Part shown: positions 23,934 through 55,354 of the stretch, in pieces
Layout: every line of letters begins with the position of its first letter
Numbering within the stretch: the first letter of the stretch is position 1
DNA from: an uncultured Candidatus Saccharibacteria bacterium
GTDB lineage: Bacteria; Patescibacteriota; Minisyncoccia; Minisyncoccales; GWA2-38-27
Length of the DNA stretch: 64,000 nucleotides
Reading direction: 5' to 3'
Assembly: GCA_964609075.1 (NCBI GenBank)
Contig: CAZSQP010000002.1
Coordinates: 8,235-72,234, forward strand
Program-made: the position numbers and the translations under genes
The notes under the pieces: generated by a model
Database searches by the model: none
The model's input: only the letters and a program-made list of their open reading frames with translations
What the model was told of the DNA's origin: nothing

Positions 23934-24141
23934 CTCTAATTTTCAATATTTAATTTTTGCAGTTTTGCCTTAATTTTTTCTGGTTAACCAGTAAGACTAA
24001 AAAAATTTCTTTTTGCTCACACTTAAAAGAATTTTTGCGTCCGAACCGATTTTTCGATTTTGCTTTTGCCCCACCCTACTGAAGCAAAGCGGAGCAATTT
24101 TGTCAGGAGTTTTAAATAAAATAGGTTCTGACTTCGTTGTA
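23934..24141 (-). repeat. Right arm of the ~210-bp imperfect inverted repeat bracketing the island
   Basis: Its reverse complement aligns to 16184-16393 (see left arm). It contains a perfect 12-bp palindrome ctggttaaccag (23981-23992) that is absent from the left arm. Confidence 0.85.
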
Positions 24142-24149
24142 AAGACGTA

Positions 24150-24167
24150 GAGACGACCGGACTCGAA
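24150..24167 (-). other. Orphan copy of the tRNA-Asp 3' end (T-loop to acceptor), att-site-like remnant
   Basis: gacgaccggactcgaa (24152-24167) is identical over 16 nt to 24281-24296 inside tRNA-Asp, in the same orientation. The flanks do not fold into a tRNA. Confidence 0.7.
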
Positions 24168-24248
24168 GGAGCTGTCCGAAGGTATTCCCTCCCTTTGGTC
24201 GGAATTCGGGAAGTCCGATTCTCGCCAGATCGCTTACCCGAAACAAAA

Positions 24249-24276
24249 AAGACCCCAAGGGGGTTTTCTTTATTTG
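24249..24276. terminator. Bidirectional hairpin terminator downstream of the minus-strand tRNA operon; right copy of the short direct repeat
   Basis: aagacccc-aag-ggggtttt stem-loop flanked by A-run and T-run. gggttttctttatttgcg (24261-24278) resembles 16159-16177. Confidence 0.6.
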
Positions 24277-39582: not shown

Positions 39583-39590
39583 TAAAAGAA

Positions 39591-39619
39591 AGCCACGTTA
39601 AATTTCAACGTGGCTTTTA
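39591..39619. terminator. Bidirectional hairpin terminator after gatB
   Basis: agccacgtt / aacgtggct 9-bp stem with an A-run upstream and a T-run downstream. Confidence 0.75.
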
Positions 39620-39646
39620 TGACAGAAGTTTTTTAGCTCCTGTCAT

Positions 39647-39844
39647 TTAATAAGAAAGGGGAGCGGTCAGATCATACCCCAAGAGAGTCAGAATCCCAAC
39701 AGGGAGGTAGATAGCAGTCAGGAGGAGAGATCCTGCTGACGTGCTGTCAATTCCTCTTGACTCTTTAATAATGAAGACTGCACCAAGGAGGTGAGCGGAC
39801 CCCATTACCGTAAAGATGATTCCTACAATACTCACGATACTCAT
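39647..39844 (-). CDS. Small two-TM membrane protein, hypothetical
   Basis: 65-aa ORF with two hydrophobic helices and an upstream RBS (aaaaggagaa on the minus strand). No homology recognised. Confidence 0.4.
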   Translation of the reverse strand: MSIVSIVGIIFTVMGSAHLLGAVFIIKESRGIDSTSAGSLLLTAIYLPVGILTLLGYDLTAPLSY

Positions 39845-39906
39845 GACTTTCTCCTTTTATGGTGTGCTATTGACTATTTATATTCTATCATATTTTATAT
39901 TATATG

Positions 39907-50950: not shown

Positions 50951-51376
50951 ATGGCATCACGTCATCTTTCAAGAAGTATAGCTATGCAGAGTCTCTACGA
51001 GTGGGACTTTTATGGGAAAAAAGAAGGAGCTCTGGATGATATTGTCAAAAGGAATCTTAAGGAATTTGGGCCCGGACTAGAAAGCGAAGATTTTGTCTGG
51101 CAGATAGTAAATGGAGTTATATCTCATCTAAAAGATATAGATAAGGTGATTGAAAAAGCAGCTCCAGAATGGCCTTTAGATCAGATTACTATTGTAGATA
51201 GGAATGTATTAAGGATAGGTCTCTTTGAATTATTATACGAAGACAAAGAAGAAGTTCCTCCAAAGGTGGCTATAAATGAAGCTATAGAGTTGGCCAAGAG
51301 TTTTGGAGGAGAAAACTCAGGCAAGTTTATAAATGGAGTTCTAGGAACAGTTTACAAGGAAATTAAAGAAGAATGA
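50951..51376 (+). CDS. nusB: Transcription antitermination factor NusB
   Basis: [37 protein letters not shown] and FINGVL. Confidence 0.88.
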
Positions 51377-52062
51377 AAGATTTTTCAAAATTAGAAAAAA
51401 ATCTTAAAGTAAAGTTTGAGAATAAAGACCTTCTTATTCAGGCTTTTGTCCACAGATCCTATTTAAATGAGAATCCAGAGTTTAAGCTTTATCACAATGA
51501 GAGGCTGGAGTTTCTGGGAGATGCTGTAATAGAACAGGCGGTAACCAATTATCTTTTTAAAAAATATCCTAAAGAGCAAGAGGGAAGATTGACTAGCTGG
51601 AGAGCTGCTTTAGTAAACTCTAAGATGTTAGCTAAAATAGCAGAGGGGGTTGGATTTAACGACTTTCTCCTTCTTTCTCAAGGAGAATCTAAAGAGAAGG
51701 GTAAGTCAAGACAATATATTCTAGCTAACACCTTCGAGGCTTTTATGGGAAGTTTGTACCTAGATCAGGGAATGAAACCCTGTGAGAAGTTTTTAAAAAA
51801 ACACTTAATAAAAGAACTTCCTCATATTATAGAGGAGGGCTTATCCAAAGGAGGAAAGTCTCTTTTCCAAGAAAAGGCTCAGGAAAAAACAGGAATTACC
51901 CCTTACTATAAGATATTAAAAGAATGGGGACCTGATCACAAAAAGAATTTTGAAGTAGGTGTTTATCTTAAAAACAAAATGATAGCTAAAGGTCAAGGAA
52001 CTTCGAAACAAGAGGCAGAAGAGAAAGCTGCCCAGAATGCAATAAAAACAAAAGGTTGGTAA
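51373..52062 (+). CDS. rnc: Ribonuclease III
   Basis: [11 protein letters not shown] catalytic signature and a C-terminal dsRBD ([24 protein letters not shown]). Confidence 0.93.
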
Positions 52063-54176: not shown

Positions 54177-54341
54177 ATGGCAAAAAAGAAAAAATCATAC
54201 ATCAAGCTTCAATGTAAAGAGTGTGGAAGGATAAACTATTTTACAACCAAGCCTAAAACTATAACTGAGGAGAAGTTGGAATTGAAGAAGTTTTGCAACT
54301 GGTGTAAAAAGCATACTGTTCATAAAGAAAAGAAGAAATGA
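54177..54341 (+). CDS. rpmG: 50S ribosomal protein L33
   Basis: [26 protein letters not shown]...[14 protein letters not shown] (zinc-ribbon L33). The longer ORF-track frame (from 53949) runs through two tRNA genes and is rejected. Confidence 0.9.
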
Positions 54342-54538
54342 ATTTTGAGGAGTTTGAGAAAAAGATTTGGGAAAAAGGATACGGTATAGTGGCTATGAAT
54401 CATTATACAAAAGACGGTAAAAGGTTTACCTATTGTGTTGTTTTAAGTAGAGATAAAGATAAAGCTTTTCAGGCGGAAGGAGAGAACTCTGAAGAGGTTT
54501 TTGAGGAGATTTATAATAAAATCGGGGGTATAAGCTAA
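54338..54538 (+). CDS. Small hypothetical protein (66 aa); its 3' end overlaps tRNA-Trp
   Basis: ATGA overlap with the rpmG stop suggests translational coupling. No homology recognised. The last 16 nt lie inside tRNA-Trp. Confidence 0.35.
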
Positions 54539-54594
54539 TTGGAAAACTGTGGGTTTCCAAAACCCATCTTCTAGGTTCGAGTCCTAGTACCCCC
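54523..54594 (+). tRNA. tRNA-Trp (CCA)
   Basis: Acceptor GGGGGTA/TACCCCC, anticodon arm TGGGT-TTCCAAA-ACCCA, T-arm CTAGG-TTCGAGT-CCTAG. Confidence 0.9.
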
Positions 54595-54649
54595 GCATTA
54601 CGAGAAGTTTCTCTTGACAGGAATAAGTATTTATCTTAAAAAGGAATTA

Positions 54650-54888
54650 GTACCCTCAAAGGAGAGAAGAGAATAGGAGGAAGAGTGGAAGACATGCCAT
54701 GGTGATTTTGTCCCGGTGTCTTCGTTTGAGACTTGTTGGGGGACTCTTTTCCCTCGCTCTTAGGCTCCCAATCGGTCAACAGGCTTGTAAAGCTATGCTC
54801 TTCAGAGGTATTGTTGCCTCACTTCTATTCTTTTCTCTCCAATTAAGATTTCAAAGAGGGTCTTTCTTTTAAGACCCTCCTTTTTATT
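54650..54888 (+). ncRNA. Candidate structured small RNA (rod-like, 6S-RNA-like in size and shape)
   Basis: Non-coding interval with its own TTGACA-17-taaaaa promoter (54614-54642) and a strong terminator (gagggtctt/aagaccctc + T-run, 54856-54888). The 5' arm ggagagaagagaatag (54661-) pairs with the 3' arm ctattcttttctctcc (-54840), closing a ~180-nt imperfect rod. Confidence 0.5.
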
Positions 54889-54947
54889 GACAGAATATTT
54901 TTTAAGCTTAAACTTAATAATAGTTCTTTAGATAAAAGGAGAAGGAA

Positions 54948-55292
54948 ATGCCTCAAAAAGGGATGATAAAGTTTGGAGAAGTTTTAAAAAGCTTATTAGA
55001 AGCTAGAGGTTGGAGTCCTGAAGAATTTGCCTCCAAACTGAGTTTTAGTTCTAGACAAGATATTGCTGATTATATCTCCGGGAGTAAAATCCCTAGTGTT
55101 AATCAGCTTAGGGAAATGACAGTAGTTCTTAAGGTGACTTTTCATGTTCTTTCTTGGTGGCTTGAGAGAAAACCTCCAGAGGAACTCGAACCTGACTTAA
55201 GGGAATTATTGACTAATATTGATAAACTAATGAGTCGTCAGGTTGAGCTTTATGTTAAGATACTAGAAAGAAAGAGAGAAGAAGAAAAATAG
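54948..55292 (+). CDS. XRE-type helix-turn-helix protein with C-terminal coiled-coil
   Basis: GEVLKSLLEARGWSPEEFASKLSFSSRQDIADYISGSKIPSVNQL fits an HTH_XRE pattern. RBS aaaggagaagg upstream. Confidence 0.6.
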   Translation: MPQKGMIKFGEVLKSLLEARGWSPEEFASKLSFSSRQDIADYISGSKIPSVNQLREMTVVLKVTFHVLSWWLERKPPEELEPDLRELLTNIDKLMSRQVELYVKILERKREEEK

Positions 55293-55321
55293 AGCCCGTA
55301 CTTGAATACGGGCTTTTTATT
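55293..55321 (+). terminator. Rho-independent terminator after the HTH gene
   Basis: agcccgta / tacgggct stem followed by tttttatt. Confidence 0.75.
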
Positions 55322-55354
55322 GAAAAAAAGAGAAAATAAGGTATTATAAGGTAT

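Follow-up and report, generated by a model that had tools for sequence, protein, structure and literature searches.

The interval between tRNA-Trp and an HTH_3/XRE gene in the 64,000-nt stretch of DNA analysed here (the window) is best explained as a gene in its own right that encodes a structured non-coding RNA of an undescribed family, which we infer to act in trans (probability roughly 0.6). That the interval holds a real gene for a structured non-coding RNA at all is highly probable. That this RNA acts in trans, and is neither a 6S RNA nor a cis leader, is rather likely. The conserved promoter, the covarying fold and the lack of a conserved open reading frame (ORF) together indicate that the gene is real, non-coding and independently transcribed. 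Comparison with two relatives shows, at the level of sequence, that the gene is strand-specific and under selection for structure, that it has its own promoter and terminator and that it is not tied to the HTH gene. The family is new in that nothing in Rfam matches it, and the kind of RNA to which it belongs, the stand-alone bacterial small RNA (sRNA), is a familiar one.

The gene order around the candidate RNA is rnc, rpsP, KH, trmD, tRNA-Tyr, tRNA-Thr, rpmG, a 66-aa ORF, tRNA-Trp, the candidate RNA, HTH_3, def, pcm and mltG. tRNA-Trp (54524-54596) lies directly 5′ of the RNA interval, and the RNA promoter starts 18 nt past it. A search with TrmD returned relatives at 83–86% identity, two of which lie on long NCBI contigs (L172 and L173; TrmD 83–85%). 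Both loci are fully syntenic (rnc-rpsP-KH-trmD-tRNA-Tyr-tRNA-Thr-rpmG-tRNA-Trp-[RNA]-def-pcm-mltG). In each of them the RNA homolog sits between tRNA-Trp and def, with no HTH gene there.

The first-pass annotation had read a promoter ahead of the RNA, consisting of TTGACA, a 17-nt spacer and TAAAAA, and this promoter is present on the + strand at 54614-54642. The -35 hexamer TTGACA (54614-54619), as read in the sequence, is identical in the window, L172 and L173, with varying bases on its flanks. The -10 hexamer TAAAAA (54637-54642) follows 17 nt past the -35, and both the hexamer and the spacing are identical in the three genomes. Invariant hexamers held 17 nt apart by a diverged spacer are the pattern expected of a working promoter. 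The -10 hexamer does not end in the consensus T, and a consensus scan missed the promoter only because its rule demands that T as the sixth base.

Judging from the position of the -10, transcription would start at about 54649 (± 2) with a short 5′ leader, AGUACCCUCAAA (54649-54660, + strand). This leader is unpaired in the minimum-free-energy (MFE) fold and partly conserved (UAGU.C..U..AA). On the far side of the core, an unpaired and partly conserved 3′ linker (54841-54855, + strand) leads to the intrinsic terminator (54856-54886, + strand), for which a 9-bp stem and a T-run had been noted before and were found again. In the DNA, the terminator hairpin GAGGGTCTT/AAGACCCTC (54856-54879) has 9 pairs (5 of them G-C) around a 6-nt loop, with CTTTTTATTG as its tail; in the RNA, the 9-bp stem GAGGGUCUU/AAGACCCUC has a pair probability of 0.97. 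Terminators occur at the matching place in L172 and L173, and their stem sequences are different. The predicted transcript should be about 235 nt long (about 54649-54886), of which about 180 nt form the core. As tRNA-Trp is not followed by a terminator ahead of the RNA, read-through of the tRNA operon could supply some of the RNA.

The core folds strongly, with a marked preference for one strand. For the 181-nt core on the + strand, the MFE was -78.2 kcal/mol, compared with -53.5 ± 4.1 kcal/mol for 200 dinucleotide shuffles (z = -6.06), and none of the 200 shuffles was as stable. The reverse strand of the core reached only -52 kcal/mol (z = -2.40). The core was also the lowest-energy 181-nt window among the 2,840 compared (both strands, 64 kb), in raw and in composition-adjusted energy, with the small registration advantage that its exact frame had been added to the grid. 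Its GC content is 0.49, like that of the tRNA clusters, versus 0.35 for the whole window. G·U pairs make up 13 of the 78 pairs in the fold. The G·U content and the weak reverse-strand fold indicate that the structure belongs to the + strand RNA and not to a DNA duplex.

The architecture consists of a closing helix of 19 bp (P1) and 7 bp (P2), a side hairpin (C) and a four-way junction with three hairpins (A, B and D). The 5′ strand of P1 is the polypurine segment GGAGAGAAGAGAAUAGGAG (54661-54679), which pairs with the polypyrimidine 3′ strand CUUCUAUUCUUUUCUCUCC (54822-54840) with a probability of 1.00. P2 joins GAAGAGU (54680-54686) to GCUCUUC (54797-54803) with a probability of 0.99. The first reading had the ends of the transcript (GGAGAGAAGAGAATAG and CTATTCTTTTCTCTCC) pair over at least 16 bp. 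This pairing is real and is longer than proposed, with 19 bp including two G·U pairs, followed by the 7 bp of P2. The hairpin C, GAGGUA-UUGU-UGCCUC (54805-54820, + strand), protrudes from the 3′ strand between P2 and P1 and has a probability of 0.99.

Within the closing helix, hairpin A (54688-54723, + strand) has an 8-bp stem, GAAGACAU/GUGUCUUC, which had been proposed earlier as an inner hairpin, and its mean pair probability is 0.90. Inside it are a further GG/CC stem and a loop with the conserved bases GCCA...CCCG. Hairpin B (54724-54765, + strand) is central and of variable length, with a UCCCUC motif at its apex and a probability of 0.4–0.6. L172 and L173 each have a hairpin at this position, different in length and sequence, and in the basal stem a comparison by eye with L172 found one A-U to C-G change and one A-U to G-C change. 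The remaining junction strand (54766-54796, + strand) carries hairpin D, GGCUU-GUA-AAGCU (54782-54794), with a probability of 0.83. Counterparts of D occur at the same place with different sequences, GUGG-UUGU-CUAC in L172 and GCG-UAA-CGC in L173. Outside hairpin D, the junction strand is poorly conserved and is much shorter in L172, where the 3′ junction strand measures about 12 nt. The first-pass annotation had described the RNA as rod-like. This part of the description has to be given up, as the closing helix P1+P2 surrounds a four-way junction (A, B and D) and carries C on its 3′ strand.

When the sequences from the window, L172 and L173 were folded separately, they gave one common architecture. 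Covariation was then scored on a MAFFT alignment of the three sequences, made without structural fitting, with the pairs of P1, P2, A, C and the terminator taken from the window fold. In this 3-sequence alignment, 94.2% of the cells form standard pairs. Changes on both sides were found in 13 pairs, compared with 5.0 ± 1.7 in shuffles (0 of 500 reached the observed count), a control that ignores the relatedness of the sequences. With the partners slid by 1–3 columns, only 0–2 pairs were changed on both sides. By helix, both sides had changed in 3 pairs of P1, 2 pairs of P2 (in which 100% of cells pair), 4 pairs of hairpin A and 3 pairs of hairpin C; hairpin A itself also folds in L172 and L173. 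RNAalifold, run independently, found changes on both sides in 14 of 53 pairs. With only three homologs, all close kin, much of the sequence identity reflects shared ancestry. Covariation across three related sequences is therefore good evidence for the predicted fold and not proof of it.

These comparisons bear directly on what had been claimed from the letters of the window alone. The independent transcription unit is upheld by an invariant promoter around a diverged spacer, a terminator kept with different stems and covarying stems, and the structured non-coding RNA of about 180–240 nt by the comparative data from the relatives. Lack of conservation, a fold like that of shuffled sequence and a cis-regulatory Rfam match had been named as outcomes that would speak against the candidate. 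All three were looked for and none was found: the RNA is conserved in two relatives, where its stems covary.

The known range of the RNA is narrow. The three sequences were combined in a covariance model (R1), which gave + strand scores of 166–204 bits against 26 bits for the - strand. Scanned over 1.55 Mb of fetched loci, R1 found no member beyond these three. When genome and metagenome collections were searched with def as anchor, all the relatives that came back were distant, with def at most 60% identical. In two of them (L001 and L081, def 60%), the slot between tRNA-Trp and def holds a terminator only and no RNA. In two others (L002 and L004), it holds three efflux-type genes (macA/macB-like) and no RNA. 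In L174 (TrmD 76%), tRNA-Trp lies 12 nt ahead of def and the RNA is absent from the slot. Exact and degenerate DNA patterns of the RNA had no match in viral or metagenome contigs, blastn against phage and plasmid collections gave short chance matches only, and blastn against 171 fetched loci gave nothing. The RNA is missing at the slot in the more distant relatives, which implies that it is either young or has moved and diverged past detection. By sequence comparison, its range so far appears to be one genus-level clade of Patescibacteria/CPR, at this slot, among the loci compared.

Four other readings of the interval were weighed against a stand-alone RNA gene. The interval might be an mRNA for a small hydrophobic peptide, similar to a type I toxin, locked by long-range pairing of its 5′ and 3′ ends. 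The 5′-3′ fold-back of hok-type mRNAs resembles the end pairing seen here, and a 57-aa hydrophobic, arginine-rich ORF does exist at 54699-54872 on the + strand. The first-pass annotation had found no plausible ORF, which holds in essence: the interval does contain mechanical ORFs (57, 47 and 37 aa), but no ORF is common to the window, L172 and L173 in frame, start or sequence. The ATG of the 57-aa ORF is replaced by CAGGTG in L172 and by AAGGAG in L173. This ORF was not called as a gene, has no match in 15 billion proteins and has no properly spaced Shine-Dalgarno sequence, and PHROGs and PADLOC gave no matches. Its hydrophobic composition needs no special cause, since translation of a pyrimidine-rich strand alone suffices. 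The toxin mRNA can be regarded as effectively refuted, given the lack of ORF conservation. More serious is the proposal that this is the 6S or 6S-like RNA of the lineage, binding RNA polymerase holoenzyme as a mimic of an open promoter. Like 6S RNA (ssrS, RF00013 and related families), the RNA is a highly structured and presumably stable product of a stand-alone gene, with a core of about 180 nt (181), its own promoter and terminator and ends that pair in a long closing stem. The 64-kb window yielded no further 6S candidate. The hallmark of 6S RNA is a large central bubble of single strands that has G-C pairs on its flanks and lies between the closing stem and the terminal stem-loop (PMC4064990). 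A conserved bubble of this kind is absent here, and all three separate folds give a four-way junction of three covarying hairpins instead. Hairpin A fills the position of the 5′ bubble strand, where it is kept by four compensatory pairs, and the 3′ junction strand is down to about 12 nt in L172. The closing helix of 6S RNA is interrupted by bulges, whereas the one here is nearly perfect over 26 bp and has an extra hairpin on its 3′ strand. Against Rfam (4,227 families) at gathering and relaxed thresholds, no family was found for any of the three homologs, only tRNAs and noise, and the 6S models had no match at E≤10 for the copies in the window, L173 and L172. As 6S sequences diverge fast, a miss by the covariance models alone is not decisive. 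The slot is also empty of the RNA in relatives that are only slightly more distant, which leaves one genus-level clade as the known range, and the neighbours are tRNA-Trp and def with no linkage to ygfA. The earlier label of 6S-like does not stand on these grounds: no central bubble, no 6S match in Rfam and a range of one genus-level clade. A 6S RNA is thus unlikely, and a 6S-like function exerted in spite of the fold is about equally doubtful.

The position of the gene raises the remaining two. A cis leader, that is, a riboswitch-like attenuator controlling def-pcm-mltG through the terminator, with the arrangement split later by the HTH cassette, would fit the classic attenuator layout, in which an intrinsic terminator comes after a structured domain. 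The RNA and its terminator do lie immediately 5′ of def, on the same strand, in L172 and L173, and by eye ACCCUC (54652-54657) could pair with GAGGGU of the terminator. However, def has a conserved promoter of its own (TTGAAA, 16–17 nt, TATTAT/TATCAT), located past the RNA terminator in each of the three genomes. In the window, the RNA and def are kept apart by a 433-bp cassette that carries its own promoter and terminator, and the RNA has not decayed. The 3′ strand of P1 is fully paired, there is no conserved antiterminator alternative, ACCCUC is not kept in L172, and no cis-regulatory family in Rfam matches. The RNA is probably not a leader of def, and we consider the attenuator quite improbable. 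A leader of the HTH gene was rejected, as that gene is missing in L172 and L173 and is part of the 433-bp insertion in the window. The last reading is a DNA-level element with no RNA function, for example a MITE, a palindrome or the remains of an element once integrated at tRNA-Trp. It would account for the 19-nt terminal inverted repeats, for the tRNA gene next door in a slot that varies between genomes and for the 8-nt TAGTACCC, which repeats the 3′ end of tRNA-Trp. But the sequence is single-copy, both in the 64-kb window and across related loci totalling 1.55 Mb, and no target-site duplication or att-type repeat flanks it. A strand asymmetry based on G·U pairs would not matter to double-stranded DNA, the compensatory changes keep RNA-type pairing, and the promoter and terminator are conserved. 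We hold such an element to be very improbable, and an att-site remnant was dropped, with the 8-nt TAGTACCC as the sole repeat. Known RNA classes were also considered. SRP RNA and RNase P RNA, whose signatures had been noted as absent, gave no match by motif or covariance model, and tmRNA, 5S, Y RNA, retron ncRNA and T-box were likewise set aside for want of a motif or covariance model match, or with the partner gene absent.

For the stand-alone RNA gene, we propose that a sigma-70-type promoter starts a transcript of about 235 nt that ends at the intrinsic terminator. The RNA would then be stable and work in trans, as a regulator or by binding protein, with no open-promoter mimicry of the 6S type and no leader role for the downstream gene. 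The near-perfect 26-bp P1/P2 helix, conserved in sequence, may protect the ends or may serve as a processing site for RNase III, whose gene rnc lies at 51373-52062, 2.6 kb upstream of the RNA. As contact surfaces, the likely candidates would be the junction or the conserved C-rich segments, GUCCCGG of hairpin A and UCCCUC of hairpin B, with a protein or G-rich ribosome-binding sites as possible partners.

Two familiar kinds of RNA offer partial parallels. RNase III processing stems, as in the stems of rRNA precursors and the intervening sequences of 23S rRNA, are long near-perfect duplexes around a structured insert. The RNA described here similarly has duplex-forming flanks around a structured insert, a genome with rnc and an operon-like region with tRNA genes. 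It differs in lying outside rRNA and tRNA precursors and in having its own conserved promoter and terminator, and cleavage here is putative. RsaE/RoxS are trans-acting sRNAs with C-rich motifs in bacteria that are Hfq-independent. They share with the present RNA an independent gene, an intrinsic terminator and UCCC-type segments (GUCCCGG and UCCCUC here) that might pair with G-rich ribosome-binding sites. The present RNA is about twice as long, its C-rich segments are partly paired in hairpins, and RsaE/RoxS have no sequence or covariance model similarity to it.

A bolder proposal is that the RNA is a global, protein-sequestering RNA on a new scaffold. It might be a non-canonical binder of RNA polymerase, or a decoy for the ribosome (anti-Shine-Dalgarno) or for RNase III, in which the conserved helix of polypurine (GGAGAGA...AGGAGG) and polypyrimidine strands would be an active, sequence-specific module and not a mere clamp. 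We regard this as rather unlikely. If true, it would make the RNA a lineage-specific global regulator for ultra-small CPR bacteria.

In the literature on CPR/Patescibacteria, we found nothing on 6S or structured sRNAs and almost no described non-coding RNAs beyond the universal ones. A lineage-specific sRNA gene would offer a testable handle on RNA-based regulation in uncultivated bacteria with reduced genomes. The practical value is modest, with three members in one genus-level clade. The case also carries a caution, in that an RNA of about 180 nt with paired ends need not be 6S-like.

The HTH_3/XRE gene downstream (54948-55292) has its own promoter (TTGACA, 16 nt, TAAACT; 54887-54914) and its own terminator. 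The whole HTH cassette is a 433-bp insertion (54891-55323) specific to the window genome, and L172 and L173 are without it. An 11-bp direct repeat, CTTTTTATTGA, flanks the cassette at 54880-54890 and 55313-55323. In L172 and L173 the def promoter comes immediately after the RNA terminator, and its homolog in the window is the sequence past the HTH terminator. Among 5.8 billion proteins, the HTH protein had no homolog but itself, and the proteins near the RNA were all singletons in clustering at 90% identity. At four places in these loci, the T-run of a terminator is fused to the next -35 hexamer (TTTTTATTGAMA): 54880-54895 and 55313-55328 in the window, about 6565-6580 in L172 and about 5650-5665 in L173. 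This fusion means that the transcription units lie back to back with almost no spacer.

Compared with L001, L002, L004, L081 and L174, the region around tRNA-Trp and def (54597-55354 in the window) is an insertion hot spot in this group, which holds the RNA with the HTH cassette in the window and without it in L172 and L173. In L174, a ParE-type toxin-antitoxin pair and DUF5674 lie ahead of tRNA-Trp. Between rpmG and tRNA-Trp in the window, the 66-aa ORF (54338-54538, + strand) belongs to a small uncharacterised family with 30 homologs at 58–81% identity. It has no Pfam domain above threshold, and its homologs occur in unrelated neighbourhoods of metagenomic contigs.

Two other regions of the window were inspected. 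At 24130-24275 on the minus strand, a GC-rich stretch of about 110 nt lies downstream of a tRNA-Met/Met/Asp cluster and its terminator, and it has no match in Rfam. At its end stands ttcgagtccggtcgtctctacg, which repeats the 3′ end of tRNA-Asp almost exactly and in direct orientation, and from its sequence this looks like an att-type duplication or a tRNA-fragment remnant of an integrated element. At 39583-39906, a 324-nt gap between convergent genes was considered as a structured RNA and rejected; its structure was weak when the bidirectional terminator was left out (z = -2.75 and -1.81). The gap instead contains a gene for a small membrane protein on the minus strand, an ORF of about 65 aa (about 39647-39844) with the Shine-Dalgarno sequence AAGGAG 7 nt ahead of its AUG, and the product is predicted to be hydrophobic and membrane-like (MSIVSIVGIIFTVMG...).
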